Shown: positions 1,450 to 63,995, numbered from the stretch's first letter. The stretch: DNA of 64,000 nt from an uncultured Pseudomonadota bacterium (GCA_949295005.1 CASFJL010000003.1:1118-65117); one strand, 5' to 3'. Made by a program: numbers and translations. The notes: generated by a model not told the origin, from the sequence alone.

Positions 1450-4326
1450 CTACTTTATTGGAACTTGTTGCGGCATTTGATTGCGTAAATTATCATTATA
1501 TATTTTTGAAAAATCACTATATGCAGCAATCCCTTCTACGGCTTGATTAATTGCTGACATATCAACTTTATTTGTCTCTAAATTAGAGGTTAATATATTA
1601 AAGCTGCTATATTGCGGTGTGTCCTTAAAATATGGTAAAAATGTGTTCCTAATTCTATAAATTACGGTTGTTTTACCTGCTTTCTTTAAGGCTAATACCC
1701 AATCTAATATATAGTTTATTTGTTCTGGTTTAAGTTGTTTTCCTTTTTGTGGCTTTTCTATTAAAAATTTAATTGTGTCTGCGGCTTTGCTCCAATTTTC
1801 CGACTTCCAATATATTTCTGTTTTTAACAATAAAGCATTTTTGCTCATATCTCCTTTTAAGAGATTTAAGGCATCTTCTGTTCTTTTTAAGTTGGATAAA
1901 GCTTGAGCCTTTATAATTTTTCTGTATTTTTTTTGGTTTGCCGATATTTCCTGATTATCCGTATTTTCCAATATTTTTAGTGCAGCGATATTATCTTCTT
2001 GAAACAAATATATTAAAGCTAATCTTGCTCCTATTTGTGATATTTGTTCTTTAGATAAATTAGGTCTCCTGAGTTGCTCTGTTAAGATGTTGGCTGCACT
2101 TTCCAACAAATCAATAGCAACCATTCTATCGGCTACTTTTTGCGCTATTTCTGTATATGATCTGCTTCTGGGGGCTAACCATGCATAATCTTTGTATAAT
2201 GCAATGGTTTTTAATGCGCTCATTTCATCTGCTCTGTTATTTAAATATATGTCTTCAAAAAGCCTTACCATTTTATCTATGATAACTTCATCTTCTTCCT
2301 GATTTGCCAAATTGAGACTTTCTTGATAGATGCTCAATGCTTTGTCATATTCTTTGTTTAAGATATATACATCTGCTAATTTGTTTAAAAGCATTTGTTT
2401 AAAAACAGGTTCTCCCCATGCATAACGTAATTTTTGCAGCTCTGAAATTGCATTTGAATATGAAATATTATTTAATCTTAATGCCAAATTTATTTTTTCA
2501 TATCTTGATAAGGCATTATATTTTTGTGAGTTGTATAATAAGGATGCTGAATATTCTTTCATCGCATTGCTTGGGTAGCCTTGCGCTGCCAATTTTTGTG
2601 CGTTCAAATATAATATTTGTGCCTTTTTAGCTCCCATGTCTTTTGAATTTTTTAAAATATCCATAAAGTTTTGAGTTGAAATGTCATCATAAGATTTTAT
2701 GGCTGTTTCAGCTGCGACCAACGCTATTCTTTCTTTTAACTCTTGAGGATAATCTTTTATGATTGATATATATGTTAAAAGAATAATATTGTTTTCTTTT
2801 TCATAACTTATTGCTGATGATGATAATGTTCTCCAAAATATTGCTTGATTGCTATTTGCTATAGATGGCTGTGAAAAATCTTTAATGGCGTCTTCATATC
2901 TGCGGAGTAAAAAGTTGCCAATACCTTCTAATGCATAATATGTTTCCGTTTTTATCTTGGGTTTAATCTCTTCTAAAAGATGCAGAGCCTCTGTTCCTAA
3001 TCCCATGCCTAAGTAATATTTGACTAATCTAAGTTGAGCTCCCGTTTGGGCGGTACCTTTTGCTGAGTTGATATCTTCTTGCAATTGTTGTTCTGCCTGT
3101 AAAAAGCTTAGCTGGTATATTTGTTCCGGAAGTTTTAGGTCAAAAACATCTGTGTCTGCTTCTTGTTTTAAGCTTTGTTGACGCTTGAGCATATCTAAAT
3201 TATCTGATATGTTTAAGCCTCTTTTTTCTCCTTTGATGCTAAATCCGCTTATTCCCTTGGTTAGGGTGATGTCTGATGCATTAGGAATGATGGCAAAACC
3301 TTGTTTTGATTTTAAAATTTCAAAATCTTGATATTTATAATCCTCATTAATGGCCTCTTTTATGGCTGTGTTTGTTCCCATTAAAATCACATCTCCAATC
3401 TCCGGATCTATAATAGAGATGACATTTCCGCCTGAATTGGTGGGAATATATAAATAAGATTGTTTCATACTGTCATATTGCACAAATATAGGTAATTCAT
3501 TAACTCGGTATTCTATATTGTGTGTGTATAAGTCTATAATCCACAACAAACCTTCTTGTCTTAAGCCGATTTTTACATCTTTTCTGGGGGTTATTCTTAA
3601 GATTGTGGCTTTGGTTGACGGAAGTTGAATGATATCTTCTACCAATAAATTGCTTTGACGCTTGAGCTCGTCAATATCAATTGTCCTTACATGATCAAAT
3701 GCTATCCAGATGTATTTTCCTCTAGAAAAAACACTCAAACCAACTTCCGTATTCCATGGAAATGCTAAGCTGATTACCTCGTCTTTTTTAGTCAAGTCTT
3801 GATGCTTGTTATTTGCAAAAATAGAAGCCTGAGCTCCATTTGTTTGGGTAGATGTTTTGGCTACCGGTGCAAATTTTAGACTAATGCGATTGTTCTTTTC
3901 TTCAGAATTTAATAAGGTATTAGGAAGCCTTAAGGTTATGCCTCCAAACTTGTTTTTAGTTTTTTCTATTTTTTTATTGAAACAATCTTTTAAATTTTGC
4001 TCTTGTAATGTGACATTGTTTAAAAATGATACAAAAGTTGCATCTTTTTCAGACATTATTGAATATTTTGGTTTGTCTTTATATTGAAAAATAATGCTTG
4101 CATTTTTGTCATTCAACAAACAATCTGCATAAATAATGTTTTTTGCATTTTTACTTATGTCTTTTTCTGAAACCTCTTGTAGTTCTATAATCAGCTGTTT
4201 TTTATTATTATCTCTGATGTTTTCTGTTTGCGCCCAAGATGTGTTATATGAACAAATACATAACATTAATATTGTTATGTATTTGATATATTTGGGATGA
4301 AATATTTTTTTTAATATCTTTAGCAC
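1450..4326 (-). CDS. Secreted 958-aa protein with a C-terminal TPR-like helical repeat region; last gene of the fliLM-linked array; function unknown
   Basis: Long ORF with an N-terminal Sec-type signal ([17 protein letters not shown]). The C-terminal half has recurrent TPR-like helix pairs ([47 protein letters not shown]). The upstream gene is 11 nt away. I recognise no named family. Confidence 0.6.
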
Positions 4327-4337
4327 AAATTTTTCCT

Positions 4338-4985
4338 TTATATATTTTTACCAATTAAAGCTGTGGTTACTTCTCTTGCTTTTATAGAATCCATTTGCGA
4401 TAATATGGCTGAAGAAGAACTGGGTTTCATCTGTCTTAATATGGCAACCAAAATATCTATATCAAAGGTGTTAAAAATTCTTGCAGCGTCTTTGGGTTTC
4501 ATTGTTGCATACATCTTTACCAATGAAGCTAATTGTTCTTGTTCTTGCTCATTATATCTATTGATTAATTTTTGCAATTTTTCTTCATAGCTTTTTAATT
4601 GAGCTAATTTTTTATCTATTTCATCTTCTGCGACCTTTAATTGCAGAGCTTTTTTATCAATTTCTTCAGAACGGACATCAAGAGCTTCTCTTCTTTCTGC
4701 TAATTCTTGTAATATATTGATTTCAGATTGGCTGAAACTGGAATTATTCTGCGCGTTTCCCATATTTGGAATGTTATGACCATCTAAAATTTGGTTTAAT
4801 TGTTGTGTTTCTGCTTTTTCTTGTTCTTCTGCCAAGGCTTTGTTTTGTGATATGCTTATTTTGGGCAGCTCACGATTGATTATGGTATTGTATACATAAT
4901 TTATTTTTACAGATAAAGATAATACTCCCACAAAAATAAAGATGGGAAGCAAGCGTATTTTATTTTTCTTTTTTTGAATATACAT
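4338..4985 (-). CDS. MotE/FlbB-like flagellar-locus protein (membrane anchor, coiled coil, MgtE-N-like C-terminal domain)
   Basis: N-terminal hydrophobic anchor (LLPIFIFVGVLSLSV) and a Q/E/K-rich coiled coil. The C-terminal LASLVKMYATMKPKDAARIFNTFDIDILVAILRQMKPSSSSAILSQMD resembles the MgtE-N-type repeat of MotE-like proteins. It sits inside the fliLM array. Confidence 0.55.
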   Translation of the reverse strand: MYIQKKKNKIRLLPIFIFVGVLSLSVKINYVYNTIINRELPKISISQNKALAEEQEKAETQQLNQILDGHNIPNMGNAQNNSSFSQSEINILQELAERREALDVRSEEIDKKALQLKVAEDEIDKKLAQLKSYEEKLQKLINRYNEQEQEQLASLVKMYATMKPKDAARIFNTFDIDILVAILRQMKPSSSSAILSQMDSIKAREVTTALIGKNI

Positions 4986-5000
4986 GTTTTCTTTATCCTT

Positions 5001-5435
5001 TTATTTTATTGAGCGGAGAGCTTTTAACAATTCCATCTCTGCTTCAGATCTTTCATCTTCTTTGGTTTTTTGTGAATATGGTGCCATCTCTATGCTTGAT
5101 TCCTTTATTTGTCGACCGTTTTTTATGGCGCCTTCTAAACGATCTGCCAAATTATCGGCTCTTTCATTTATAAACATCAAATCATTTTTTAATTCTTTTG
5201 CGCTATCAACAACTTCTTTCAAATTATTGCTTGAATTTTCCGTAACGGTTTTTAATTTGGGAATGCTGTTTTCTGCTTTATATGTGGCTTCATTTAACGC
5301 TTCTATCAGCTTAAATAGTTCACTTTGGTTTTCCCTCATTAAATTTAAGTTTTTATCTAATTGATAAACATAAATAATTGTTGGAATCAGCAATATAATG
5401 ACAATCAAATTTATAAATAAATCTAAATTATCCAT
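5001..5435 (-). CDS. Small membrane-anchored coiled-coil protein of the flagellar locus (uncharacterised)
   Basis: 144 aa with one N-terminal TM helix (LFINLIVIILLIPTIIYVY) followed by a predicted coiled coil. Its start overlaps the fliM stop by 8 nt, suggesting translational coupling. Confidence 0.5.
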   Translation of the reverse strand: MDNLDLFINLIVIILLIPTIIYVYQLDKNLNLMRENQSELFKLIEALNEATYKAENSIPKLKTVTENSSNNLKEVVDSAKELKNDLMFINERADNLADRLEGAIKNGRQIKESSIEMAPYSQKTKEDERSEAEMELLKALRSIK

Positions 5436-6495
5436 TTTTTTCAGCCTTTCCTTTTACCTTTATTACAACTTTTTTTCCTTTTCTGCCCATAGAACCTGTT
5501 AATAACGGAACATCTCCGCATAAAATTGATATGTCATCGTTGGGGAACATTTCTAAAGGCAAAAAAGATCCTTCTTTCCATGAAGAAATTTCTCCGAATT
5601 TTACTTCAACATCTTTCATTACGGCTTTTAGTTCTACGTCTGTTTCCCATAATTGTTCCATTAAATGGTTTTCCCAAATGGCATCTCGGCCAAATCTTTC
5701 CCCCATGAACATTTGCAATAAGAGTTCTCTTATCGGTTCAAGCGTGGCATATGGAATCATTAAATCAATTTTGCCGCCTCTGTCTTCCATATCTACTCTT
5801 AAACGCGCAACAATAACCGCATTGGATAATCGGGAAATGGTTGCAAAACGAGGGTTTGTCTCTGTTCTGTCATAGCTGAAATTTACTGAGGTTATTGGGT
5901 CAAAGGCCGTTGACAAGTCATTGAGAATAAGCTGAATCATATCTTTAACAAGGTTTAATTCAATTGTGGTGTAGGGGCGTCCTTCTATTCTCATGGCGGC
6001 AGTACCACGTCTGCCTCCAAGCAAAACATCTACAATCGAATATACCAAAGAGCTATCAAGAGATATCAAACCATAATTATCCCATTCTTCTGCTTTAAAG
6101 ACTGTAAGTAAGGTGGGTAAGGTTAGGGCGTCTATATATTCTCCAAAACGCATTGATTCAATTGATTCTAAAGATACTTCAACATTATCTTGGGTAAAAT
6201 TTCTTAATGAAGTTGCCATAAGACGAATTAATCTATCAAATACAATTTCTAACATTGGCAAGCGTTCATATGAAACTAAGCTACTGTTTAAAATTGCATG
6301 CACACCTGTTTTAAAGGCATGTGGCGAATTTTCATCATATTCTTCCGAATGATACCCTAATAAAGAATCTATCTCTTCTTGATTTAAGATTTTTCCGCCA
6401 TCTCCATCAGCGTAAGAAGTTGCCTCATCCTGAACTTCTATTTTATCTGTCCAGTCACTGTTTGAAGCTTGTGCTTTGTTATTTTCTTCTACCAC
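5428..6495 (-). CDS. fliM: Flagellar motor switch protein FliM
   Basis: 355 aa. The N-terminal LNQEEIDSLLG matches the CheY-P-binding LSQxEIDxLL motif. The central FliM region and C-terminal FliN-like (SpoA) region are colinear, and fliL is adjacent. Confidence 0.9.
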   Translation of the reverse strand: MVEENNKAQASNSDWTDKIEVQDEATSYADGDGGKILNQEEIDSLLGYHSEEYDENSPHAFKTGVHAILNSSLVSYERLPMLEIVFDRLIRLMATSLRNFTQDNVEVSLESIESMRFGEYIDALTLPTLLTVFKAEEWDNYGLISLDSSLVYSIVDVLLGGRRGTAAMRIEGRPYTTIELNLVKDMIQLILNDLSTAFDPITSVNFSYDRTETNPRFATISRLSNAVIVARLRVDMEDRGGKIDLMIPYATLEPIRELLLQMFMGERFGRDAIWENHLMEQLWETDVELKAVMKDVEVKFGEISSWKEGSFLPLEMFPNDDISILCGDVPLLTGSMGRKGKKVVIKVKGKAEKNG

Positions 6496-6516: not shown

Positions 6517-7041
6517 CTATATGTTCTTTTCAATTTCAATATTTTTTATGTTAATATCTGCAATGTTTATTGGATTGGCTGCCAAACGCAGTCTATATAA
6601 AAGCTCTTGTTTTAACCAATACATTCCTTCTGTTCCGCTGATTTCACTGCTCATTAATCCGTTAACATGAGCTAGGGTTATGTCATATAGGCGAGGCAGC
6701 AATATTTCTATTTTGGCAATGTCTTCTTTGTTGGTTAATTCAATGGTTAGGTTTAATCTTACAATTTCACTTGCAGATGAGGTCTTTTTTAAAGGTGCAC
6801 TGATTTCAGGTAAGTCATAAAAAATTAACGGCTGTTGCTCTGTCCCTTCTGCTTGGGGCAATATTTTATAAGCACCGCTTTCTTTGTTAGAGCCGGAAGA
6901 ACCAAAAGTATGATACATACCAACAGCAATTCCGATTGCGATTAATATGGGCAAAAGAAAGATAATAATTTTCTTTTTATTTATTTTTGAAGTTTGTTCT
7001 TCCTCTTCTTCAAGTGTATCAAATTCATCAAATTCAGCCAT
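6517..7041 (-). CDS. fliL: Flagellar basal-body-associated protein FliL
   Basis: 174 aa with an acidic N-terminus and a single TM (IIIFLLPILIAIGIAVGMY). The FliL-type C-terminal domain reads FYDLPEISAPL...VRLNLTIELTN...LLPRLYDITLAHV...EGMYWLKQELLYRL. It lies directly upstream of fliM. Confidence 0.8.
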   Translation of the reverse strand: MAEFDEFDTLEEEEEQTSKINKKKIIIFLLPILIAIGIAVGMYHTFGSSGSNKESGAYKILPQAEGTEQQPLIFYDLPEISAPLKKTSSASEIVRLNLTIELTNKEDIAKIEILLPRLYDITLAHVNGLMSSEISGTEGMYWLKQELLYRLRLAANPINIADINIKNIEIEKNI

Positions 7042-7168
7042 ATAATACCCCAGATATTGTCCCTGATATATAGATTAACCCTTGTTGGATATTATATTAT
7101 TTATTTTATAAATAAAACTTAATTTTTTATGTTTTATACATATATATTTTTATTTTGCAGATTTTAAT

Positions 7169-7198
7169 AAAAAAACCGGCTTAATGCCGGTTTTTTTA
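7169..7198 (-). terminator. Rho-independent terminator downstream of the 990-aa pilin-like gene
   Basis: aaaaaaaCCGGCttaatGCCGGttttttt: a 5-bp GC stem flanked by A and T runs, so it could work in either direction. It lies immediately after the stop at 7201. Confidence 0.6.
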
Positions 7199-7200
7199 TC

Positions 7201-10173
7201 TTACCACATAGTGTCATAACGCAGTGTTGGATCATTACTCAGTGTTGGATCATTTAATTTTAATTTACCTGATTTTGGCGAAGACTCACCATATCTAATG
7301 CTACCTACTTTTGCTTCATGCGGAAGATAGTGGTCAACATATTTTTCATTAAAATTTTTTCTGTCAAAATAACAATAAATTGTGGCAATGGCAGAAAGTT
7401 CTTGCTGATATACCGGAAATAAGTTCCATATAATATCATCTGCAACATAGTGGCCTCCGGTGTAGCTGTTATATTGCTGTGCCGGATAAATAAAGCCCAT
7501 AATTCCATGCCAGCCTTGGAATTTATCGCCGATAGAATATTTTTTGATGGTGGTGTTTAACCAGGTGTTGATTTGAAAATTGTATGGCATGTTATAAATA
7601 TCTGCCCAATATTCAGGAGTGACATAACTTCCATCATTAATACTATATGAATTTGCGCCTTCTCCGGAGTTATTTGATATGGCAACAAACGGATAATATA
7701 CTGTTTCTGCTGAGCTGCCGGATGATTTTATTTTTAACTTGGATCCTGTCGGATTAAAGGATTGTGCTATGGTAACAGCAGGGTTACCTCCAGACGTTGT
7801 ATTTCCTGTTCCAACAGCCATACCGGCTTGTGCCATATTAAAACGAATTGGCGTGATGGTGGCAACAGCGGCATAATTTGGCGGACAATGCGGCGTTGGT
7901 ATAAAGCCCAGCCATGCAGAGGCGTTATTGCAGCCATTGCAATCTAGTAATCCACTTAATTTACCAGTTGCAGGCTCCACGCCGTTCGTTTCCCAACTAA
8001 CATCGCCAGCATAAGTGTTGTCTAAAACATAGATACCTTTGTTGATAAAATCCGGCAAAATATCACTTAAACGTGCGCCGCCGCGTGTGGCCAGCTTGAT
8101 GTCATTCATCATGGATGTATATGCCGGATTAACCTCAAATTGATATTTTCCGCCGGTTCCATCTGCTGTTGAAACATTTTCATCTTGAGTATTGCTTATA
8201 AAACTGTCTGCTTTAATATAACCCGTTCTTGAGGAAGGTGTTTTTTTTCTTTCTTCATTTGTCGTCATTATCTCAATAGCACCCTTACGGATATGAACTG
8301 AACTGTTATAAGCATTTCCGTATGGGTCTGTATAATATCCACTTTCTGTGGTAGATGGAGATATGGTAAGCACATCATTTCCAGATACGCCAAAATATGA
8401 ATTAACATGCACATTATTTTCAGATACCATTAATTCTGGTTGGGCACCATCTGCCCTCTTTCCCGAACTTATATATGTTTGCCCATTTGTTGCTTTGAAG
8501 TTAATTGCATTGGCATTACCGGCTAATCCGATAGTTACATTTTTTCCATCGGCATATCGCATTTCAACTTGATCAAGATTTGCGTATAAGCCTTGATGTT
8601 CTCCATTTGCATTTGAATTTCCTACATTTAACTCTTTAATAAATGTTTCGCCATCAGCAGATTTTACTGTCAAAGCATCATCTCCGGCGCTGTCTAAAAC
8701 AGCAAAGTCGGCTCTAACAGTTGTGTTTCCTGATGTTTCTGCCACGCTTAATCCATAATTGTTCGTGGTTCCAATTCTTCCGGCTTGAAAGTTCTTTTCA
8801 ACAGACAAATCATCAATTATTGTATCTCCATAAACTCTTAAATTGGCATTGTTTGTTTCTGTTCCAATTTCAACATTTCTGGCCTTTTGAATTGTAAGTG
8901 TGCTATCATAAAAATTGGCTTTGGAAGAATCTGCGGTAATGACATAATTTGATGTTTCATCTTTAATTGCAGATAATGTTCCGTCAATGGTTGTGCTTCC
9001 TTTAATTGTTGTGTTACCGGTAGCGTCTACCGTAAAGTTGTTTGACATTAATGATGCTTCACTTTGATCTACTTTAAACAAAGGTGTCGCACTGTTTCCA
9101 AACTGAATAAATGATTGCCCGCCATTATAGTTGGCTTGAAAACGTCCGCCTAAGGCTTGCATACTTCCGGTATTTCCATCTACCATAAATTTGGCTGAAG
9201 AATCTGTTGTATCTGCTCCAACATATAATTTAGGTTTGATTTGAGTATATTCACTATCAGCAATAAAGTTTTCTTCGGCGGCTTTTAAGGTTAAAGAGAA
9301 TACACCGTCTCCGGTTACATCTAAAGTGGTGTCTGAATCGTTTGAGCCTTTAATATTGATTGAATCTCCGGCGGCAATTAAATCTTGCAACCTTTCAATG
9401 GCGTTTTGTCCCATATCCAAAGCTGTTTCCATTTGGTTTAATTGCGGCATGCCGGGAACGTCTACTCTGTATAATACTTTTGTTCCACCGGCTGTTCCGT
9501 CTGCAACCGCTTCAATAGATGTGGCAACAATAGTGCCGTCTTTTAAATTGTTTTTGATTTCTTCCGGAAATTCATCTGTCGGTATTTCCCAAACACCTTG
9601 AACTCCGGTGGCTTTGTCTCCGCTGACATAACCACCGTTTGTTCCAATCATAGAGGCAATTCGAGATGTTCTTATTTTGCTAAAACTTTCTCCTCCGTCA
9701 TTGGGATGCGCAACCAAAACAGTGGTCAGTGCTTTTCTGGTACCGTTTGGGTCTTTTGTCTCTTTAATAACTACTTGCAAATCTCTAAAAATTTTTCCTT
9801 GGTTTTGAAAACCAATAGGAAGATAATCTCTAAAGTGCTCTATATTAATTGGGGTTGAGGTCTTGGTATCTGTATCAGCATTGGCAAAACCAAATTCTCC
9901 GTAATCAACTTCTTTATGCGCTTCGTCTGCTGAATTTGATGTGACTGTTCCACCGGCAACAATTGTGTTGTAGTTGTCTCTTAAATATGAATCAATGCCG
10001 TTGACAACAGTTCTGATTTGGCTGGCCGCATTGATATCTTGCATTTCATTTGTTCTTTCTGCAGCTTTTTTGTATATAACAGGAGTTACCATGGAAATTA
10101 AACCAAGCATGGCCAAAGCTTCAACCATGAGGCTACCGCTTTGTGATCTTAATTTATTAATTTCTCTTAACAT
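7201..10173 (-). CDS. Giant (990 aa) protein with a type IV pilin/pseudopilin-like class III signal peptide and a long repeat-rich fibre-like body
   Basis: The N-terminus MLREINKLRSQSG/SLMVEALAMLGLISMVTPVIY has a basic leader, Gly at -1, Glu at +5 and about 20 hydrophobic residues. LYRVDVPGMPQLNQMETALDMGQNAI recalls the PilV/shufflon N-terminal constant region (from memory). The middle is G/T/S/N/D-rich beta-repeat-like sequence, and the C-terminal domain contains Cys, Trp and Tyr. Confidence 0.7.
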   Translation of the reverse strand: MLREINKLRSQSGSLMVEALAMLGLISMVTPVIYKKAAERTNEMQDINAASQIRTVVNGIDSYLRDNYNTIVAGGTVTSNSADEAHKEVDYGEFGFANADTDTKTSTPINIEHFRDYLPIGFQNQGKIFRDLQVVIKETKDPNGTRKALTTVLVAHPNDGGESFSKIRTSRIASMIGTNGGYVSGDKATGVQGVWEIPTDEFPEEIKNNLKDGTIVATSIEAVADGTAGGTKVLYRVDVPGMPQLNQMETALDMGQNAIERLQDLIAAGDSINIKGSNDSDTTLDVTGDGVFSLTLKAAEENFIADSEYTQIKPKLYVGADTTDSSAKFMVDGNTGSMQALGGRFQANYNGGQSFIQFGNSATPLFKVDQSEASLMSNNFTVDATGNTTIKGSTTIDGTLSAIKDETSNYVITADSSKANFYDSTLTIQKARNVEIGTETNNANLRVYGDTIIDDLSVEKNFQAGRIGTTNNYGLSVAETSGNTTVRADFAVLDSAGDDALTVKSADGETFIKELNVGNSNANGEHQGLYANLDQVEMRYADGKNVTIGLAGNANAINFKATNGQTYISSGKRADGAQPELMVSENNVHVNSYFGVSGNDVLTISPSTTESGYYTDPYGNAYNSSVHIRKGAIEIMTTNEERKKTPSSRTGYIKADSFISNTQDENVSTADGTGGKYQFEVNPAYTSMMNDIKLATRGGARLSDILPDFINKGIYVLDNTYAGDVSWETNGVEPATGKLSGLLDCNGCNNASAWLGFIPTPHCPPNYAAVATITPIRFNMAQAGMAVGTGNTTSGGNPAVTIAQSFNPTGSKLKIKSSGSSAETVYYPFVAISNNSGEGANSYSINDGSYVTPEYWADIYNMPYNFQINTWLNTTIKKYSIGDKFQGWHGIMGFIYPAQQYNSYTGGHYVADDIIWNLFPVYQQELSAIATIYCYFDRKNFNEKYVDHYLPHEAKVGSIRYGESSPKSGKLKLNDPTLSNDPTLRYDTMW
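7222..7254 (-). repeat. 18-nt tandem duplication at the 3' end of the pilin-like gene
   Basis: cagtgttggatcatt occurs at 7222-7236 and again at 7240-7254. It encodes the duplicated NDPTL(S/R) near the C-terminus (KLNDPTLSNDPTLRYDTMW). Confidence 0.8.
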
Positions 10174-10193
10174 GTGTCTTCTCCTTGAATTTT

Positions 10194-10970
10194 TTATAAT
10201 TCTGCATTTTCATATAATTTAATATTATGCTTGTATATAACGGTTAAACATATATTGGAATCATTTGAATTGTTGCAGGTGTCTGCAAATTCTCCGTTTT
10301 GGGCAATATATGGCGGAATTTCAAAAGATATTAAATCTGTGACAGTTTGTTCCTCATTTTCATCATAACCTATTTGATATGTTCCGGTATGGCTTTGAAT
10401 GACTAATTGCTCGCATTTTTTCTCATCAGAATCCCCTTCTGCATATTTTTTGCAAATGGGATAACCAAAGCCTGGATCATCTCCAACCATATCTTTCATT
10501 GCTGTCAAAAAATCATTGCTTGGTAAACCTGTTTTTATGCTTAACCATTTTTGCGGTAAAACCAAAAATGAAACTAAATAGGTGATTGAATCTTCATTGC
10601 GGCACTCTAAGGCAGATGTTCCGTCCTCTGATAAGCAATAGATTTCTGTGACAATATTATCATCATCAACAAAACCATAGGGAAGATAACTTCCTCCACT
10701 GCTTGGTGATAAATCTTCTTTTTGTAATACTCCGGTTGCAAAAGTGACCGTGCCTGAAGGAGTGGACGTGCCGTCCGGATTTTGAATTTGGGCATATGGC
10801 GGCGTGTGCGCCTTAATGTATAAGGCACCGGCTTGCTGTTTTATTAAAATTTTTGATATGATGGAACGTGCTAAAGGCTCTATTTCAATTTTTCTGATAT
10901 CTGAGCGATATGATAAATTGAATGAATAAAGAGCTAATATCAACGTTGCCAAAATTACCCAAATATACAT
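10194..10970 (-). CDS. Membrane-anchored Cys-containing hypothetical protein, apparently co-transcribed with the giant pilin-like gene
   Basis: 258 aa with an N-terminal hydrophobic anchor (MYIWVILATLILALYSF) and no cleavable prepilin motif. The soluble part has scattered Cys residues. An AAGGTGA RBS precedes the start, and the stop lies 20 nt upstream of the 990-aa gene start. Confidence 0.6.
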   Translation of the reverse strand: MYIWVILATLILALYSFNLSYRSDIRKIEIEPLARSIISKILIKQQAGALYIKAHTPPYAQIQNPDGTSTPSGTVTFATGVLQKEDLSPSSGGSYLPYGFVDDDNIVTEIYCLSEDGTSALECRNEDSITYLVSFLVLPQKWLSIKTGLPSNDFLTAMKDMVGDDPGFGYPICKKYAEGDSDEKKCEQLVIQSHTGTYQIGYDENEEQTVTDLISFEIPPYIAQNGEFADTCNNSNDSNICLTVIYKHNIKLYENAEL

Positions 10971-11202
10971 TTTTCACCTTAAATCTTTATTTATTTCTTT
11001 TATGAGTTTAGCATAAAAAATCAATATATTATAGTAAATATCCACGTTTTTTATCAAAATTTCATATTTTTGAAACATTATATATCCTGATTTTATAATT
11101 TATTCTTAATTTATCTGCATTTTACATTCGGAAAAGTTAAAAAAAATGCTTGGCTTATTTTTTGTTCAATTATAAAATACTTTCAATCTTAAGGAGAGAA
11201 GT

Positions 11203-11976
11203 ATGATTAAGAGTCTTTGTCTTATTACCGGTTTGATGTTGGGTGTTTCTTCCGCTGTTTGGGCGGATGATGCTTTCTTTTCTGAAGAGGAGGGGGTGAC
11301 ATCTTTTCAAAAAGATAAAGAAGCTTGGCGGCGTAATGAGGTTAGATTACCCCAAACTGAAACAAAAAAACAAGAAATCCTTTCTGAAATAAAACAAGCT
11401 ATCGGAGATGCCGCTTGGAATAATATTTCTCAGGCAGAGCAAATCTTTTGTTATGAAGTAACAACCAAACCTCAAGATTATGATGGATATACACTAAATA
11501 ATATGGCTTTGACAGCTTTTTGCGGTGTAATTAAAGATGATATCAAACAAAATGTTTTATCTCAGCTCTTTATGAATAATAAAAACGTGTTGTTTAATGT
11601 GCGGGAAGATTGTATGGTTCAGCCGCGTATCGTTTTGCGTTTTGTCAGAGGTGTGGATATGACTGATGTTATGCTTTCTGCTCCTTGTTATTCTTTTGCC
11701 GTTTATGCAAACGGCGGCGCAAAAGTGTTTAATGCGCGTCCTGCCGCTCAGGTTATTGATGCTATGGTTGATACTTTTGATAAAAATAAAATGGATTTCG
11801 TCTCCCCTGCATTATTGAATCAGTTGTTGCCGATTGGTGTGCCTCAGACAAAAGAACAACAAGAACTGGTCAGTAAAAAAGAAAAAGCCAAGGGCGTTTG
11901 GATGGATAAGAAAAAAAATGAGGAAAAAAACAAAAAGAAAAATCAAGGCTGGAATAATTTAGATTTAGGATTTTGA
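11203..11976 (+). CDS. Secreted hypothetical protein with a Lys-rich C-terminal tail
   Basis: 257 aa with a signal peptide (CLITGLMLGVSSAVWA/DD) and an AAGGAGAG RBS. It is divergent from the pilin-like operon across a 232-bp spacer and is followed by a strong terminator. Confidence 0.6.
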   Translation: MIKSLCLITGLMLGVSSAVWADDAFFSEEEGVTSFQKDKEAWRRNEVRLPQTETKKQEILSEIKQAIGDAAWNNISQAEQIFCYEVTTKPQDYDGYTLNNMALTAFCGVIKDDIKQNVLSQLFMNNKNVLFNVREDCMVQPRIVLRFVRGVDMTDVMLSAPCYSFAVYANGGAKVFNARPAAQVIDAMVDTFDKNKMDFVSPALLNQLLPIGVPQTKEQQELVSKKEKAKGVWMDKKKNEEKNKKKNQGWNNLDLGF

Positions 11977-13657: not shown

Positions 13658-14260
13658 ATGATTTTTATAAATATATCTGCTACATATGTAATGATTTTTT
13701 TAGGAGTTTGCAAGTTGTTTGATGAAATTGAAAAGCCCAAAAAGAAAAAAGTGTTAAAAAAAATAACACCGCAACGATTGAGAAATATTGCTCTTTATTA
13801 TCTAAAGCGTTATGAAACATCTACGGCAAACTTGCGCCAAGTTTTGCGTAAACGTGTTAATGATTATGCTTTTTATAATAAAGAGTTTGATAAGCAAGAA
13901 GCCTATGCTTGGATAGAAGATATTGTTGCTGATTTTTTGCGCTATGGTTATGTGGATGATGAACGCTTTGCCGAAATTAAAATCAGAGATTATAAACAAA
14001 TGGGAAAATCAGTTCGCTATATTAAGGCAAAACTTAAAGAAAAGGGCGTAAACGATGATTTGGTTGAACAATTGCTTGAAACTCAAGATTATGATGAATT
14101 GCAAGCAGCTCTAAAGTTTGCGCAAAAAAAACGAATCGGACGTTTTCGCGCTGCCGACAAACAATTTGAATACAAGCAAAAAGATATGGCCGCATTGGCT
14201 CGTGCCGGTTTTTCTTATGATGTTGTCTGTGAAGTTTGTCAAATGCACGAAGATTTTTAA
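13658..14260 (+). CDS. recX: Recombination regulator RecX (start uncertain; possibly the internal Met at 13691)
   Basis: RLRNIALYYLKRYETSTANLRQVLRKRV followed by repeated three-helix RecX-type units. The ORF start lies only 18 nt from the divergent hslO start, so the true start may be further downstream. Confidence 0.8.
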   Translation: MIFINISATYVMIFLGVCKLFDEIEKPKKKKVLKKITPQRLRNIALYYLKRYETSTANLRQVLRKRVNDYAFYNKEFDKQEAYAWIEDIVADFLRYGYVDDERFAEIKIRDYKQMGKSVRYIKAKLKEKGVNDDLVEQLLETQDYDELQAALKFAQKKRIGRFRAADKQFEYKQKDMAALARAGFSYDVVCEVCQMHEDF

Positions 14261-15063: not shown

Positions 15064-15132
15064 TTATTTTCTTAAAACATGTATAATGGACGATTAGGGT
15101 AAAAGTTCGTATTTCATTAGCTTTTTTCCACC

Positions 15133-15165
15133 AAAAAAAGGGGGTAAAACTTATCCCCTTTTTTA
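15133..15165 (-). terminator. Rho-independent terminator after the oxidoreductase gene
   Basis: aaaaaaaGGGGgtaaaacttatCCCCtttttt: a short GC stem flanked by A and T runs, located between the stop at 15196 and the truA start. Confidence 0.55.
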
Positions 15166-15195
15166 TTATAAAACTTTGCTTTTGGCAATGCTTTA

Positions 15196-16218: not shown

Positions 16219-16341
16219 CTTTATTTTCCTTAAATTTAAGTTTGCTGATTTATTTAGTTTACTATTAGCAAAAGTTTTGATAAAAATCTCTTAAATTCTT
16301 GTTACATATTGTTACATTTTGTTGAACATAAGGAAAATGAT

Positions 16342-18135: not shown

Positions 18136-18199
18136 TTTGTTTGTAAATATAATCAAAATATATTATATTATAAAATAAATTTGAAAATGAGTGGGAAAT

Positions 18200-19483: not shown

Positions 19484-19499
19484 GTGGTGGGCAAGATAA

Positions 19500-21725
19500 A
19501 TGTTTTTTTTTGCAAAAGATAAAAACTCTAAAAAATATATAATAAAAAAGTTTTTATTTATTTTATTTTTTCTTTTTATTTTTTTTGTTTTGTGTTTGGC
19601 TTTTATTGCTTTGGCAAAGCTTATTCATAAAGGTTTTAGTTTAAAAGTTTTTTATGAGGCTTTGAATTTTGCCAACAAAATTGCGGCAGACCCATTATAT
19701 TTATTTTCTGTCTATGAACAATATTTTAAGGTTTTTATTAAATCTGCACAGCACGATAATTTGACATTGGCAACGTGGCTGCCTATGTTTCCGATTTTTT
19801 TGTTTGGTGCATTTTTAATTTTTGTGGTTTATAAATGGGGCAAAAAATTTTATCGGAAAATAAAAAAATTTGAGTTCTCTTCAATTGAAAAATTGTTTGA
19901 AGAAAATATTTTTTCAAATAACTTTTTTGTTTTGGGACAAAACAAAAATGATTTATTGGAATTAAAACAACATAATTCTTTGTTGGTGCTTGGTGAGACA
20001 TCCAGTTCTAAAACTTCTTCTTGTGTTATTCCTTCTATTTTGGAAGCGGATAATTCTTCTTTATTTGTTGTTGCTTCTCAAAATGATGTGGCAAAATTTA
20101 CTTCCGGATACAGAGCTCAGTTAGGTAAAGTGTTTTATTTTAATTGGGGGTTGAGTGATGATGCTTCTAAAAAAGAGTTTTTGGCCAGATGGAATCCTCT
20201 CTCTCAGATGGAAATGCCTAAAAATAATTTGGAAAAAGAAGAATATTTATATGGTTTGTGTAAATATTTTATAACTTATGGTCTGAATGATAAAAGTGAT
20301 GATTTTGTAAATTATGAAAAATCTGTTATTATGACGATGTTTGCTCTTTTAAATTTTTTTGTTATGAAAATTGAAAGAGCTCAAGCCAATGATTATTTTT
20401 TAAGTCGATTTTTTGAAAATAAAAAATTGCATGCAGATGATAAAGATTTGCTCTTAAGTTATTATATTTTAATGGATAAAACTTATGCAAAAAATGCAAT
20501 TGATAATTTGCAAAAAAACAATCTTTCTTTGGAAAATTATTTACCGATTGGCAGTTGGGAAGGTGTTCCTGATAATTGGAAAGGCAAAGAACTTTGTTTT
20601 GCAATGTTTTATGATTGGTTGCTTCGTTGCTTTTTTAAATTTAAAAAACAAAATCAACCCCAGAGTGATTTGTGGCAAATATTGGCTGAATATTGCTTGG
20701 AAGAAACAGAATTTTTTGGTTATTCGGATAAGCAAAAAAAATTGTTAAAAAATGTATTATCTGTTTCTGCCGAGCAAAAATCGGTTATCTTTTCTGATAT
20801 ATTCAAATCTTTAGAGTGTTTTCAAATTCAAAGTGTTCGGGAAAGAACATCTACTAGTGATTTTTGTATTGCAGATTTATATAATTCCAATCAAGTGATT
20901 ACAGTTTATTCTATTGTGGAAGAAAAAATCTTTTATTTTATTAATAAGTTGTTTGTGGACATGGTCTTAAATTATAATTTTGTTCAGCAGACACCGTCAA
21001 ATATGGCATTTGTTTTTGATGATATTGAACAGCAACCGAGATATGAAGTTTTAGGAGACTTTTTTAAGCAAAATCAATTTGCAAATACATCTTTTTTAAT
21101 GACTGTTTCTTTTTATGATTTATTTAAGCAAAAATATCTTCATTCTGAAATTGTTTCTTTTTTGAAAAATATTTCATATAAGCTTTTGTTTGTGCAAAAT
21201 TATAAAAATGCGGCAAAATTATTGCAAAACGCTTTTATTGATTCTGACATTATTAACAATAATGATGAAAAAACAAAGGAATATTATAAAAGTTTGATTT
21301 GGGACATGAACAATAAAATTGTGCATGACCTTTCAAGAAAAGATGTTTTGTTGTTGGTCCCAAAGTTAAGTGAAACACCTTTTTGTTTGAAGGCAGCATA
21401 TTTTTTGCAAAATGAATATTTGAAAAGCAAAGCTGAAATGCAAACAGCTTATTTTTTGGATGAAAATCAATTTAACTTGCGTAATTCTCAAGATTTGGAT
21501 GTTCCTGATTTGTTGGTTACACTCAATAAGTTGGGATATCATCTGGAAAATATGGATGCATTAGATGATTTTTTGAAAAACCAGCAAAATGATGATGTGT
21601 TGAGTTTTGATGATGCTCCCACAAATACTTCCAAGCAAGAAACAGAAGCTGATTGGTGGCTTGAAGAAGATTTTTTTGAACATAAAAAAACTGAAAATAA
21701 GAATCCGTTTAAGACTTCCAATTAG
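19500..21725 (+). CDS. VirD4/TraG-like type IV coupling protein homologue with atypical nucleotide-binding motifs (orphan)
   Basis: Two N-terminal TM helices. LLVLGETSSSKTSSCVIPSILEADNSSLFVVASQNDVAKFTSGYRAQLGKVFYFNW...RWNPL is colinear with VirD4 (xxVxAPTRxGKGxxxVIPxLLxxxxSxxxxDxKGE...T...R...G.VFxF...NP). The Walker-B-like motif is AFVFDDIEQ. The gene is extremely AT-rich. Confidence 0.55.
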   Translation: MFFFAKDKNSKKYIIKKFLFILFFLFIFFVLCLAFIALAKLIHKGFSLKVFYEALNFANKIAADPLYLFSVYEQYFKVFIKSAQHDNLTLATWLPMFPIFLFGAFLIFVVYKWGKKFYRKIKKFEFSSIEKLFEENIFSNNFFVLGQNKNDLLELKQHNSLLVLGETSSSKTSSCVIPSILEADNSSLFVVASQNDVAKFTSGYRAQLGKVFYFNWGLSDDASKKEFLARWNPLSQMEMPKNNLEKEEYLYGLCKYFITYGLNDKSDDFVNYEKSVIMTMFALLNFFVMKIERAQANDYFLSRFFENKKLHADDKDLLLSYYILMDKTYAKNAIDNLQKNNLSLENYLPIGSWEGVPDNWKGKELCFAMFYDWLLRCFFKFKKQNQPQSDLWQILAEYCLEETEFFGYSDKQKKLLKNVLSVSAEQKSVIFSDIFKSLECFQIQSVRERTSTSDFCIADLYNSNQVITVYSIVEEKIFYFINKLFVDMVLNYNFVQQTPSNMAFVFDDIEQQPRYEVLGDFFKQNQFANTSFLMTVSFYDLFKQKYLHSEIVSFLKNISYKLLFVQNYKNAAKLLQNAFIDSDIINNNDEKTKEYYKSLIWDMNNKIVHDLSRKDVLLLVPKLSETPFCLKAAYFLQNEYLKSKAEMQTAYFLDENQFNLRNSQDLDVPDLLVTLNKLGYHLENMDALDDFLKNQQNDDVLSFDDAPTNTSKQETEADWWLEEDFFEHKKTENKNPFKTSN

Positions 21726-52473: not shown

Positions 52474-52625
52474 TCTAATACTTTGTTAATTGGATAAATT
52501 TTAGTTGCTATATAAAAAATATTGATTAGTATATCAAAAAATGGTGCCTCTTTAGAAATTTTTTTTTGAATAGAATCAATTTCCAACGAGGTGTCTGGTT
52601 TTGTTTTTTTGTTGTTGAGGTTAAT

Positions 52626-60412: not shown

Positions 60413-61480
60413 TTATTCCAATGGGGTTAATTTTTCATAATATTCATAGTTTTCTACCCCGCTTAAAAAAGCGCCGTCAAAACCTAAGTCGACAATTCCT
60501 TTAAAATGTTTTGATAATAGTTTTTGCCATTGCGGGTGCCAATATTGCGTTATAATTCCTTGAGAATCTACAAATGATGCTCGTTTTAACCATTCCGGAG
60601 AACCAATTTTCCAACCTTTTTGCCAATAAAATTTGGTAGAATCTGCTTCGCTGATATTTATTCCGGCATAAACTTTTCTTAACGCTCCGTTTTTTTTGTA
60701 TTTTAAATGATTAATATCTTCTTTGGTGAGGGGTTTTTGTTGGAAAAACGGTGAAATAACAATTATATCAAAATTAGAATTGTCAATTTCTTTTAAAAAG
60801 TCATATTTTGTTTTGAATTTTGATGTGTCTAACAAAAAAGCAATATTTTTGGCATTTGATAGTTTTTCAATATTATCAGCGTTTATTTTATCATTGGTAT
60901 TGTGTTTTAATTTTTTAAATGCGCTAGCCTCATCTTGAATTTGATAACTTATAATTTGTGGTGCAGAATTTTTTGACAAAGTACAAGTCTCAATACTGAT
61001 GAGTTGTTTGTTTGCCGGAATTTTATCTGAGCGTTGTTCACATAAATAATTGTTCAAAACAACACCGTCTATTTTTTTTATGTAGTCTTCTTTTAAGTTT
61101 TTAAAATTTTTGCTATGTATATTTTCATCATTTGATAACAAGCTGTCATTGTCTATTGAATAGCCATATTTTCTTGAATGGTTATAATCATTAAGATGAT
61201 ATTCCCATATATCATCTTGCAAAAGCGGGGAGCCTTCATGCACCAAAATTTCAAAACGTGGATTTTTTTGTTTGGCAAAATCTGAAAGCATTATTACATT
61301 TTCACGCATTAAATCTCTATAATTTAGTATATATTCAGGAAAATCAACAGATTGGCTGTTTAGTTCCTGTTTTGTATATGGATTTGCTTGCGTAAAACCA
61401 TACAACCCCGCATTTGCATTGAAAGCGAGCAAATTTGAAATAATACTCAATCCTATTAATATGGAATTTTTATGTAACAA
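60413..61480 (-). CDS. Secreted protein, tentatively a GH114/TM1410-like putative glycoside hydrolase
   Basis: Signal peptide (LSIISNLLAFNANA). The C-terminal DIIVISPF...LRKVYAGINISEADSTKFYWQKGW...YWHPQWQKLL...IVDLGFDGAFLSGVENYEYY follows the (aY.siGEae..r.YW...yW.p.W...GfDGv.lD.vd.y) pattern of that family. Confidence 0.45.
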   Translation of the reverse strand: MLHKNSILIGLSIISNLLAFNANAGLYGFTQANPYTKQELNSQSVDFPEYILNYRDLMRENVIMLSDFAKQKNPRFEILVHEGSPLLQDDIWEYHLNDYNHSRKYGYSIDNDSLLSNDENIHSKNFKNLKEDYIKKIDGVVLNNYLCEQRSDKIPANKQLISIETCTLSKNSAPQIISYQIQDEASAFKKLKHNTNDKINADNIEKLSNAKNIAFLLDTSKFKTKYDFLKEIDNSNFDIIVISPFFQQKPLTKEDINHLKYKKNGALRKVYAGINISEADSTKFYWQKGWKIGSPEWLKRASFVDSQGIITQYWHPQWQKLLSKHFKGIVDLGFDGAFLSGVENYEYYEKLTPLE

Positions 61481-63089
61481 TATCTGCCTCTTTTTTATCT
61501 GTTCTTTCGGTAATCTCGGCTATTTCCATTGCAATTGCCAACAAGTTATCAAGCATTTGTCTTGGGTTTTTATCTAATTCTGTTTTACTGAATTTTTCAA
61601 GATAAACGCGTAAGGTGGCGCCGCTGCTTCCCGTGCCCGATAATCTGTATACAATTCTTGAACCGTCTTTAAATTTGACTATTAAGCCGTTTTTTGTAGA
61701 GCTTTTATCAACAGGGTCATTATAGATAAACGGATGTGCCTCTGAAACTTCAAAATTATCAAAAATTTTGCCTTCAAGCTTGGGTAATCTAGCTTCAAGA
61801 TCTTGCATCAATTTATCTGCAACAGACGTATCCAATCCTTCAAAATCAAATCTTAAATAATAGCTTCTGCCATATTTTTTCCAGTGCTCACGCGTAATTT
61901 CTTCTACACTCTTACCTGTTTTGGCAATAATGCTTAACCAATATAATATGGCCCAGATTCCATCTTTTTCTCTGATATGGTTGGAGCCTGTGCCAAAACT
62001 CTCTTCTCCGCATAGGGTTATGCGTTTGGAATCCATTAAGTTTACAAAATATTTCCAGCCGGTTGGTACTTCATAGTAGGGGAGATTGTGCTCTTTTGCC
62101 ACTCTTTGTACAGCAGTGGAGGTTGGGCAAGATTTTGCAACACCGTAAATTCCATTTTTATAGGCTGGTATTATGCTATAATAATCGGTTAAAATTGCAA
62201 GAGAATCACTTGGAGAAACAAAAAAGTTTCTGCCTAATATCATGTTGCGGTCTCCATCACCATCATTGGCAGCTCCAAAATCCGGTGAGTTTGGATTGTT
62301 CATAATATTCAATAATTCTGTAGCGTAGGTCAAATTTGGATCCGGATGCTTGCCGCCAAAATCAGGCAGTGGTTGACTGTTTATTACCGTTCCTTTTTTT
62401 GCGCCTAAGATATCTTCAAAAATGCGAATCGCATATGGACCGGTAACTGCATTAAAAGCATCAAACTTCATGCTGAAACCTTTTTGAAAAAGTTGTTTTA
62501 AGGCATCAAAGTCAAAAATATTTTGCATCATTTCAACATAGTCTGATACCGAATCAATAACTTCAATTTGCATATCACCCAGTTTGAAATTGCCGATTTT
62601 GCTCAAATCTATATCTGCTGATTCATAAATTTTATATTCAGTGATTTGTTTTGTGCTTTCATATATCTTATCGCTGATAGATGTGGGGATTTGACCTCCG
62701 GTTTCATTGGCATATTTTACACCAAAATCTCCGTCTATACCGCCGGGGTTGTGAGAGGCGGAGAACACAAAACCTCCGTCTGTTTTATATTTGAGTAATA
62801 TGTTTGATGATGCCGGAGTTGATAAAAAGCCATTTTGACCAATAATTAATTTTGAGACGCCGTTGGCTGCTGCCATTTTGATAAACTGCTGTATGGCTTT
62901 GTCATTATAATAGCGTCCGTCTCCGCCAACAACAAAAACTTTTCCGGCCAAATTGCCTATAGTATTAAAAATGCTTTGAATAAAATTTTCAAAATAATGG
63001 GGCTGCATCATCACTTTTGTTTTTTTGCGCAAACCGCCAGTTCCCATTTTTTGATCTGAATATGGTTTTGTTTGGACTATTTTTAACAT
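61470..63089 (-). CDS. pgm: Phosphoglucomutase (alpha-D-glucose phosphate-specific)
   Basis: MLKIVQTKPYSDQKMGTGGLRKK, the active-site phosphoserine motif SASHNPGG, the metal loop DGDGDRN, and GEESFG. The ATG at 63089 is preferred to the ORF-track start. Confidence 0.93.
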   Translation of the reverse strand: MLKIVQTKPYSDQKMGTGGLRKKTKVMMQPHYFENFIQSIFNTIGNLAGKVFVVGGDGRYYNDKAIQQFIKMAAANGVSKLIIGQNGFLSTPASSNILLKYKTDGGFVFSASHNPGGIDGDFGVKYANETGGQIPTSISDKIYESTKQITEYKIYESADIDLSKIGNFKLGDMQIEVIDSVSDYVEMMQNIFDFDALKQLFQKGFSMKFDAFNAVTGPYAIRIFEDILGAKKGTVINSQPLPDFGGKHPDPNLTYATELLNIMNNPNSPDFGAANDGDGDRNMILGRNFFVSPSDSLAILTDYYSIIPAYKNGIYGVAKSCPTSTAVQRVAKEHNLPYYEVPTGWKYFVNLMDSKRITLCGEESFGTGSNHIREKDGIWAILYWLSIIAKTGKSVEEITREHWKKYGRSYYLRFDFEGLDTSVADKLMQDLEARLPKLEGKIFDNFEVSEAHPFIYNDPVDKSSTKNGLIVKFKDGSRIVYRLSGTGSSGATLRVYLEKFSKTELDKNPRQMLDNLLAIAMEIAEITERTDKKEADIVT

Positions 63090-63182
63090 TCTTGCCTCCA
63101 TTATCTTGTTGTTTGATATAAACATATCATTTTCATTAATAAAGACAAGTGTTCATTGAACTTATCTACTTATAAAATAAAT

Positions 63183-63995
63183 TCAATTTTCTGGTGAAAT
63201 AAATTCTACCAAAGCATTTATTTCTCTTTTTGCGGCTATATGAGAAACGCTCATTTTGTATTTTAATTCTGGTTGCCCCATATCTAAAACCGTTAATCCT
63301 TCTAAGAACAATTCTTTGTATATTACTCTGTCTTTTAAGCCAGAAAATAACCTAAAACCATATAGTTTTGAGAGTTTTTCCAATTGTGAAAATACGGCAA
63401 TCTTGTTTTTAGAATTGTAGCTGGATAGTTTGTTGCCACTAACAATCCAATTTAAATACGGCTTGCCCTGAGAAGCTAAAAACTTTTTTACATCCCATAT
63501 GAAATTTGAATAATGTCCTGGTTTTAATACCCTATCTGTTTGGTAATCAATTTCTGCAATTACATTTAAATCTATCAAGCTGTCTGAAATAGGGGTGATT
63601 ACCGTATCTGCATATTTATGAGCTTCATCAAATAAATAATTTTTTGTTCCGGGAGTGTCTATGATTATGGCATCAAAACTATTTTGTCTTTGCTTGATTT
63701 GCGCACCAAAAGCTTCTCTTGCTTGCGCTTGCAAATAGGGGTTGTCTTCAGGAATGATTTTGCAATGATCCGGAATCGGCAAACTTAAATTTTTATCTTC
63801 CTTAAATCTTCTTCTGTTTTCTATATATTTTGATAAACTTCCCTGACGTCCGTCTAAATCAAATGTAGCTACACTAAAACCTTCTTGCATTAGTTTTATG
63901 GCTAAATGCATTGATATTGTTGATTTTCCTGTTCCGCCCTTTTCATTGCTGATAACAATTATATGGGCTCTTTTTTGTTCTGTTTCTTGTGTCAT
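63183..63995 (-). CDS. mipZ: ParA-like division-plane positioning ATPase MipZ
   Basis: HIIVISNEKGGTGKSTISMHLAIKLMQEGFSVATFDLDGRQGSLSKYIENRR closely parallels the Caulobacter MipZ N-terminus (deviant Walker A plus DLDxRQ...ENRR). The length is 270 aa. Confidence 0.85.
   Translation of the reverse strand: MTQETEQKRAHIIVISNEKGGTGKSTISMHLAIKLMQEGFSVATFDLDGRQGSLSKYIENRRRFKEDKNLSLPIPDHCKIIPEDNPYLQAQAREAFGAQIKQRQNSFDAIIIDTPGTKNYLFDEAHKYADTVITPISDSLIDLNVIAEIDYQTDRVLKPGHYSNFIWDVKKFLASQGKPYLNWIVSGNKLSSYNSKNKIAVFSQLEKLSKLYGFRLFSGLKDRVIYKELFLEGLTVLDMGQPELKYKMSVSHIAAKREINALVEFISPEN

Follow-up and report, generated by a model that had tools for sequence, protein, structure and literature searches.

A giant PilV-family pilin and its pilin-like partner as a candidate tip module of a type IV filament in uncultured Alphaproteobacteria

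In a 64-kb stretch of DNA from an uncultured Pseudomonadota bacterium (the window, to the whole of which all coordinates refer), two adjacent genes on the minus strand encode a giant PilV-family pilin of modular build, here called G990 (7201..10173; 990 aa and the stop codon), and a 258-aa partner, P258 (10194..10970), whose open reading frame (ORF) ends 20 nt upstream of G990 on the same strand. Our analysis suggests, with a probability of roughly 60 %, that this operon specifies a module for the tip of a type IV filament (a minor-pilin module), and that the genes for the machine assembling the filament are elsewhere in the genome. The original prediction, which had been drawn from the sequence of the window, described an orphan pilin-like fibre; its pilin homology, its partner and the lack of machinery in the window all stood, but a tip or minor subunit is a better reading of G990 than a self-standing fibre. 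The ORF coordinates, the 20-nt gap and a divergently oriented ORF for a secreted 257-aa protein (P257) were likewise found as that prediction gave them.

Domain architecture of G990

The first 13 residues of G990 (10135..10173, minus strand) form a basic leader that ends in an invariant glycine, and the protein starts MLREINKLRSQSG/SLMVEALAMLGLISMVTPVIY, with the predicted cleavage site between G13 and S14. Conservation was assessed in an alignment of 54 diverse family members that share 33–75 % identity with G990. In this alignment G13 is invariant (54 of 54 relatives), as are E18, which occupies position +5 of the predicted mature protein, and much of the helix that follows, within which an AMLxLIxMVTP stretch is nearly invariant. 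A wider set gave the same picture, with the pattern G[STG]xx[IV]EA present at positions 8–22 in 112 of 119 full-length proteins. The leader itself varies across the family in both sequence and length (7–21 aa before the glycine). Because Gly-1, Glu+5 and the helix are held invariant while the leader varies, the alignments argue against a chance resemblance of the N-terminus to pilins; prepilins typically show an invariant Gly-1, Glu+5 and α1 helix behind a variable leader, whereas a plain membrane anchor would not be expected to do so. Within the window, G990 is the sole ORF of at least 40 aa with a class III (prepilin peptidase-processed) signal.

The leader is followed by a pilin module (mature residues 14–293; 9295..10134, minus strand), made up of the α1 helix and a globular head that carries the motifs YLPxGF and LYRxxVxGxPxLNxMET. 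The original prediction had noted a resemblance to the constant region of PilV and other shufflon proteins, and had proposed a profile search; the resemblance proved to be real. The Pfam Shufflon_N model (PF04917) matches residues 115–279 of G990 with an E value of 4.5e-14 and a score of 53.1 bits, against a gathering cut-off of 27.5. A tblastn search of 72,556 plasmids with residues 1–300 matched 911 records, and in the best-scoring plasmid records listed the match is to a gene annotated pilV, with approximately 27 % identity over residues 1–293. Direct comparison with the PilV protein of a Serratia plasmid gave a BLASTP E value of 4e-16, in an alignment that matches up the leader-ending glycine, the YLPxGF motif and the longer LYRxxVxGxPxLNxMxTAxDMGxN motif. 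By sequence, then, the N-terminal ~290 residues of G990 and the constant region of PilV are truly homologous. Structure prediction with AlphaFold2 (AF2) and the family alignment gave a poor model of whole G990 (pLDDT, the predicted local distance difference test score, of 57); residues 40–220 reached a pLDDT of 75–85, and the model has a helix at residues 2–66 followed by a β-sheet head, which is the long N-terminal helix and β-sheet head of the pilin lollipop fold.

Beyond the pilin module, residues 271–620 (8314..9363, minus strand) form a variable β stalk that is rich in G, T, N, S and D, differs in length between relatives and is the fastest-evolving part of the protein. Column conservation in the stalk is 0.2–0.4, and the closest relative, 97 % identical in the head, is 84 % identical in the stalk; the stalks of distant relatives are only 22–24 % identical. 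The pilin module (residues ~1–270) is conserved, and α1 is 72–100 % identical across the family. Stalk length largely accounts for the range of family length, which extends from 925 to 1414 aa. The β-rich, repeat-like middle that had been proposed from the sequence is borne out by its composition, by its conservation profile and by the stalks of some relatives, which match the Bactofilin β-helix model; AF2 predicted an all-β stalk at low confidence.

The distal part of G990 is a C-terminal domain (residues 621–990; 7204..8313, minus strand) in which C763 and C934 are invariant and C745 is near-invariant, in keeping with the Cys-containing domain that the original prediction placed there. The peptides that it quoted were all located in G990, namely LYRVDVPGMPQLNQMETALDMGQNAI, LDCNGCNN (743–750), PHCPPNY (761–767) and IYCYFD (932–937). 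The C-domain includes an ultra-conserved block at residues 677–720 (8014..8145, minus strand; YQFEVNPAYTSMMNDIKLATRGGARLSDILPDFINKGIYVLDNT). Residues 691–720 have a mean column conservation of 0.94, the highest in the whole of G990, and the stretch NPAYTS.M.DIKL..RGGARLSDILPDFINKGIY (residues 682–715) is almost invariant. AF2 confidence in the 677–720 block is below 50, which would fit an interface that depends on a partner.

A phmmer search with the C-domain against 1.84 billion representative proteins returned 355 clusters. Because nearly all of the best 150 clusters have the same layout (900–1414 aa, the domain at the C-terminus and a pilin signal at the N-terminus), the C-domain appears to belong to the giant-pilin architecture, and almost never to occur outside it. 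It has no match in Pfam, NCBIfam, the PDB or phage records. A phage tail-fibre origin of G990 was considered and rejected, as tblastn with residues 261–990 found no match in 50,697 phage records. One protein of 966 aa (P0313, one representative) has the C-domain behind an ordinary Sec signal peptide, with no pilin module, which reflects either a swap of domains or a chimeric gene call. At the 3′ end of the G990 gene, a tandem 18-nt duplication (7214–7249) encodes NDPTLS-NDPTLR just before the C-terminus.

The partner protein and the transcription unit

P258 homologues start MY[IL]W.[IVL]L..F (consensus MYIWV.LATF) and have no leader, no Gly-1 and no Glu5; a good Shine–Dalgarno sequence precedes the P258 ATG. 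The YLPYGF motif is invariant in P258, a motif found also in G990 and PilV, and the P258 and G990 genes are alike at YLPxGF even on the DNA level. P258 has four invariant cysteines, including a C232/C241 pair near the C-terminus that resembles the D-region of pilins. The AF2 model of P258 (pLDDT 80.9; predicted template-modelling score, pTM, 0.74) consists of an N-terminal helix (residues 2–54) on a β-sheet, so that both proteins, modelled singly as had been suggested at the outset, show a helix and a β-sheet head. Comparison of P258 with the N-terminal module of G990 by hhalign gave probabilities of 80–89 % (best 88.8 %, E 2.5e-6).

P258 is probably a diverged, leaderless paralogue of the G990 pilin head, an assignment made with moderate confidence, since a Foldseek search with P258 detected nothing significant in the PDB. 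The original prediction had viewed the 258-aa protein as a membrane-anchored partner; the partner is a conserved gene directly upstream of G990, but the notion of a mere anchor gives way to the leaderless pilin fold indicated by AF2 and hhalign. An alternative identity, as a PilM protein of the R64 type, was rejected: the first 20 residues are alike (MIYWLL... and MYIWVI...), but the hhalign E value was 0.18 and there was no Pfam PilM match.

The operon has clear boundaries. Directly after the G990 stop codon lies an intrinsic terminator (7167..7199, minus strand) that separates the pair from fliL. It has perfect 14-nt arms and an RNA fold of -20 kcal/mol (z -6.1), and a comparable hairpin is found downstream of almost every homologue. 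Upstream of P258, an extended -10 element (TATGCTAAACT; 11005..11015, minus strand) is located 45 nt from the ATG; of 65 distinct upstream regions, 59 have a match to T[AG]TGnTAnnnT no more than 80 nt from the ATG, mostly at -47 to -41, when shuffled sequences lead one to expect 2.1. About 60 nt further upstream, and ~107 nt from the ATG, is a second motif (TGTTTCAAAAATATGAAA; 11060..11077, minus strand) with the consensus GTT[ATG]CA-N5-7-T[GT]AA. This motif is present near -105 in 59 of the 65 regions as well (47 in forward and 12 in reverse orientation; 2.0 expected), and has one exact match in the window. In the window's clade the motif stays with P258 and not with fliL, and the motif is a probable regulator site. 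Because conserved promoter elements and the terminator bound the pair, P258–G990 is a transcription unit of its own.

Two candidate modes of control were tried and rejected. There is no exact TTAA-N7-TTAA box for CtrA upstream of P258; the upstream motif reads TTAC-N7-TTAA, near a degenerate CtrA box, in some clades only, and other promoters in the window do not have it. For sigma-54, the upstream regions examined contained one sigma-54-like match only.

The conservation of the gene pair in related genomes, a check that the original prediction had called for, was borne out: P258 is directly upstream of the giant gene, on the same strand, wherever both are on a contig. At least 261 giant homologues exist at 90 % clustering, none of them named, and the giant was found in at least 315 stretches of species-representative genomes. 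Exact look-ups of G990 and P258 returned no record. All of the 78 loci that were fetched come from metagenome-assembled genomes (MAGs) of uncultured Alphaproteobacteria, and the isolate names that state a source point mostly to human, mouse, deer or rumen gut. A search of the literature on pili in RF32/CAG-239, the GTDB group to which these MAGs are suspected to belong, yielded nothing relevant.

The tip-module model and competing explanations

In the model that we favour, the basic leader would hold G990 in the inner membrane until a prepilin peptidase cut it after Gly13, and the conserved α1 helix, with its Glu5, would dock the protein into a filament like any pilin. The bulk of G990 would restrict it to the filament tip, where the variable, β-helical stalk would project the conserved and probably disulfide-bonded C-domain to make contact with host or other cells. 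P258 would pair with G990 in the membrane, as its cap or initiation partner or, alternatively, as a chaperone during assembly. The model presupposes a putative type IV assembly machine outside the regions covered here.

Several results weigh against this model, above all those concerning the machine. Pfam and NCBIfam scans of the long non-overlapping window ORFs found no Peptidase_A24, T2SSE, T2SSF or secretin; they covered all of these ORFs apart from 61470..63125 and 63183..63995, for which Pfam matches on record give a phosphoglucomutase-type and a MipZ/ParA-type protein. What the scans did find was housekeeping genes, scattered flagellar genes (MotA/MotB, FlhB, FliR) and GcrA. A hydropathy check of the ORFs without a family match, and of a few others, revealed no multi-pass membrane protein, and neither the window nor the loci scanned contain a major pilin, an Flp-like small pilin or another class III ORF. 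These family, hydropathy and class III scans bear out the absence of pilus machinery from the window, on which the original prediction had remarked. The same holds further afield. When all Pil proteins of an IncI-like plasmid were compared by phmmer with the six-frame ORFs of the window and of 85 loci (10 kb), the only matches were of PilV to the giant proteins; three more distant loci had no pilus machinery among the Pfam matches on record within 10 kb; and the ~3 kb beyond the right end of the window contain housekeeping genes only, with no pilus machinery. A search with the N-terminal 84 residues of G990 for a short pilin sharing its N-terminus gave same-family fragments only.

Other points against the model concern the proteins themselves. 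The class III signal claimed in the original prediction is upheld by conservation but not by profile models, since N_methyl (PF07963) and TIGR02532 gave no match to G990 at E<=0.1 in the Pfam and NCBIfam searches. We take these models to be centred on a GFTLIE-type motif, which the N-terminus of G990 (G/SLMVE) does not contain. The missing structural counterpart of P258 in the PDB is matched by that of G990, for which Foldseek with the whole low-confidence AF2 model likewise detected nothing of significance in the PDB. It is, moreover, unusual for a pilin-like partner to be leaderless, and the charges that flank the P258 helix leave its membrane topology uncertain.

These same observations can be turned into a different explanation, in which the two proteins form an envelope adhesin that is derived from pilins and independent of any machine, either as uncleaved bitopic inner-membrane proteins or as proteins exported by another route. 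The lack of machinery in any sequenced neighbourhood, the complete loss of the leader and Glu5 from P258 and the failure of the N_methyl model to match would all be accommodated. However, the family-wide Gly-1 and Glu+5 are hard to explain without processing by the peptidase and packing of helices in a filament, and a 100-kDa protein anchored in the inner membrane of a diderm cell has no obvious route to the surface; we therefore consider a machine-independent adhesin unlikely.

The closest homologues of G990 are the PilV proteins of conjugative MPF_I plasmids, which raises the question of whether G990 is a chromosomal descendant of a conjugative thin-pilus adhesin. The protein would then sit at the tip of a type IVb pilus that stabilizes contacts for a type IV secretion system (T4SS) or conjugation, and its target would be bacteria rather than a host. 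A distant VirD4/TraG-like protein (19500..21725) encoded 9 kb away, beside a pentapeptide-repeat protein, could be cited in favour of this origin, but the match is weak and partial (31–43 bits) and the window contains no other T4SS genes. Nor is there a T4SS gene among the Pfam matches on record for the 10-kb flanks of relatives, in which the VirD4-like gene was not searched for specifically. The hallmarks of a shufflon are also missing, as there are no repeated inverted sites in or after the 3′ half of the G990 gene, and no recombinase family among the window ORFs scanned. Furthermore, the family is chromosomal, vertically conserved and syntenic, unlike a mobile element. A conjugative role is distinctly unlikely on this evidence. 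Very unlikely, too, is that the genomes of this lineage have neither a prepilin peptidase nor a type IV filament machine, and that the pilin-fold pair has been repurposed into a new envelope or surface organelle, for example one tied to the flagellar apparatus.

A flagellar connection deserves attention in view of the genes immediately downstream of G990, which the original prediction had overlooked. FliL (6517..7041) is encoded directly downstream on the same strand, followed by FliM (5428..6495), a DUF6468 protein, an FlbB/MotE-like protein and a 958-aa tetratricopeptide repeat (TPR) protein, all on that strand in a run of flagellar genes. The pair lies beside this fliL–fliM–DUF6468–flbB-like–TPR run in nearly all of ~80 loci, down to 30 % identity. 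The end of the flagellar operon (1450–4326 and 4338–4985) consists of the FlbB/MotE-like protein (a match to MgtE_N, with a weak collar_FlbB match in NCBIfam that is below the cut-off) and the TPR protein, a pairing that presumably recalls the collar proteins of spirochaetes.

Comparison of window positions 7201–11202 with two groups of relatives (loci L003–L007 and L017–L036) showed the P258–G990 block to be inverted relative to fliL and P257. In the window's clade the pair is co-directional with fliL, and in distant clades it is divergent from fliL, with P257 directly downstream; the existence of the two arrangements implies a past inversion of the two-gene block. UvrB, DsbA and PhoU/PHO4 are likewise conserved near the pair. 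At one locus (L056), the pair is found among Lpt, RpoN, ValRS and TolC genes. At another (L091, JGI 3300042603 contig, 8679–9722), fliL, fliM, the DUF6468 gene and flbB are missing, and all that is left of the 958-aa TPR protein is a stretch of 347 aa that corresponds to its N-terminal third (33 % identity, E 3e-40). The locus nevertheless keeps P258, a giant of 1045 aa and P257 intact, and its lineage may have lost flagella. Because loci L056 and L091 separate the pair from the flagellar genes, lineage-wide synteny explains the adjacency better than shared function.

The least probable of the explanations considered is accordingly that the proteins are an uncleaved inner-membrane pair forming a periplasmic scaffold or collar round the flagellar motor with the FliL, FlbB/MotE-like and TPR proteins: the adjacency, which persists even across the inversion, the collar-like pairing and the want of pilus machinery nearby speak for it, but the pair is neither co-transcribed with flagellar genes nor bound to occur with them, given the promoter motif that stays with P258, the strong terminator before fliL and the two loci just described, G990 (in which Gly-1 and Glu+5 are invariant) is homologous to a pilus tip adhesin, and the synteny extends to UvrB, DsbA and PhoU/PHO4.

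Of the remaining genes in the window, P257 is the closest to the pair. It is encoded at 11203..11976 on the plus strand, divergent from P258, and its 257-aa product has a Sec-type signal, cysteines and a Lys-rich tail. In many distant relatives its homologues directly follow the giant gene, and in the window's clade they are divergent; in other relatives they are 6–9 kb away or absent, so that P257 is best described as a third gene in loose linkage. Pfam, NCBIfam and the PDB yielded neither a family nor a structure that matches it.

Three further features of the window are recorded here in their own right. At 16309–21725, three co-directional genes encode a 608-aa predicted lipoprotein without a family, the 430-aa pentapeptide-repeat protein, which has weak similarity to effectors of the PipB/PipB2 type, and the 741-aa VirD4/TraG-like protein; these genes may be what is left of a T4SS, or an outlying part of one. 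Tandem signal peptidase I (S26) genes for proteins of 217 and 262 aa are located at 51820–53354. Around ~14000–16000, GC skew changes from negative to positive and gene orientation from mostly minus to mostly plus strand, the pattern that is expected around a replication origin.

Significance and comparison with known systems

The Alphaproteobacteria that carry this operon recur in MAGs from the gut of humans, mice, deer and ruminants, and little is known of them. A surface-directed pilin of ~1000 aa that is conserved in hundreds of species is a strong candidate for their main organelle of contact with hosts or neighbouring cells, because it combines a fast-evolving stalk with a conserved distal domain. 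The family extends modular pilins well beyond 1000 residues (up to 1414 aa), and represents a PilV-type module outside conjugative plasmids. A partner that has neither leader nor Glu5 could reveal how the capping or priming of tip complexes takes place. The findings also imply that surveys based on the N_methyl motif miss whole families of large pilins.

Membership of a characterized family of similar length and architecture would have told against the novelty of G990. Pfam, NCBIfam and PDB searches found no such family: sequence and profile searches of the PDB with G990, P258 and P257 gave chance-level matches only, and the PilV of the Serratia plasmid is much shorter. The nearest known relative is nevertheless the PilV adhesin of IncI-type thin pili (PF04917), with which the N-terminal ~290 residues share the leader ending in Gly, the α1 helix, YLPxGF and LYRxxVxGxPxLNxMxTAxDMGxN. 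The differences begin with size, as G990 is twice as long (990 aa, and 925–1414 aa in the family, compared with 477 aa for Serratia PilV), and include the +5 position, which is Glu in G990 and Ser in the Serratia protein. PilV is diversified by alternative C-terminal segments, whereas G990 has neither shufflon repeats nor a nearby recombinase, and combines a conserved C-terminus with a variable middle. Finally, pilV lies at the end of its type IVb pil operon and adjoins a prepilin peptidase gene; the G990 gene is chromosomal, in Alphaproteobacteria, and stands outside a pil operon, with no such peptidase gene next to it.

In its overall plan, G990 is similar to CofB and TcpB, the initiator and tip minor pilins of the type IVb pili CFA/III of enterotoxigenic Escherichia coli and the toxin-coregulated pilus of Vibrio, in which a pilin module is followed by a β-repeat linker and a C-terminal β domain that is displayed at the tip (PMC8179133). 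The layout of CofB is pilin, β-repeat and β-sandwich (PMC8179133). G990 has no detectable sequence relation to any PDB chain, however, and is roughly twice the size; in addition, the cof and tcp genes are part of their pilus operons, whereas G990 lies outside one. Modular pilins are widespread and are predicted to be at the tip, and Shufflon_N (IPR007001) is among the architectures listed for them (PMC8179133). Like PilB (von Willebrand factor A domain) and PilC (lectin) of Streptococcus sanguinis, and ComZ of Thermus (β-solenoid), G990 has a functional module grafted on to a pilin module. The largest modular pilin in the 2021 survey has 860 aa (PMC8179133), a length that G990 exceeds; unlike the surveyed proteins, it does not have the N_methyl signature on which that survey relied, and its C-terminal module is outside known families.

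The KilN/TadG-type pilins of the Tad-like Kil system of Myxococcus, with their orphan tip1–3 clusters, offer the closest precedent for an isolated locus, as a large minor pilin and smaller pilin-like partners, rich in cysteines, are encoded together in a small cluster. In Myxococcus, clusters for large minor-pilin tips are encoded away from the machine locus, and the variable distal parts of the Kil pilins are thought to tune the target range (PMC12075869). The G990 locus differs in having two genes rather than three, one of them for a leaderless partner, and in its homology to type IVb PilV rather than to TadE/F/G (Pfam gave no TadE or Tad match for G990 at E<=0.1); there is no evidence of predation for the G990 pair. 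What is unusual in the G990 system is its size, its status as a chromosomal orphan, its novel C-domain and its leaderless, pilin-fold partner. Set beside these known systems, it is an unusual variant of a known theme, and not a new kind of machine.

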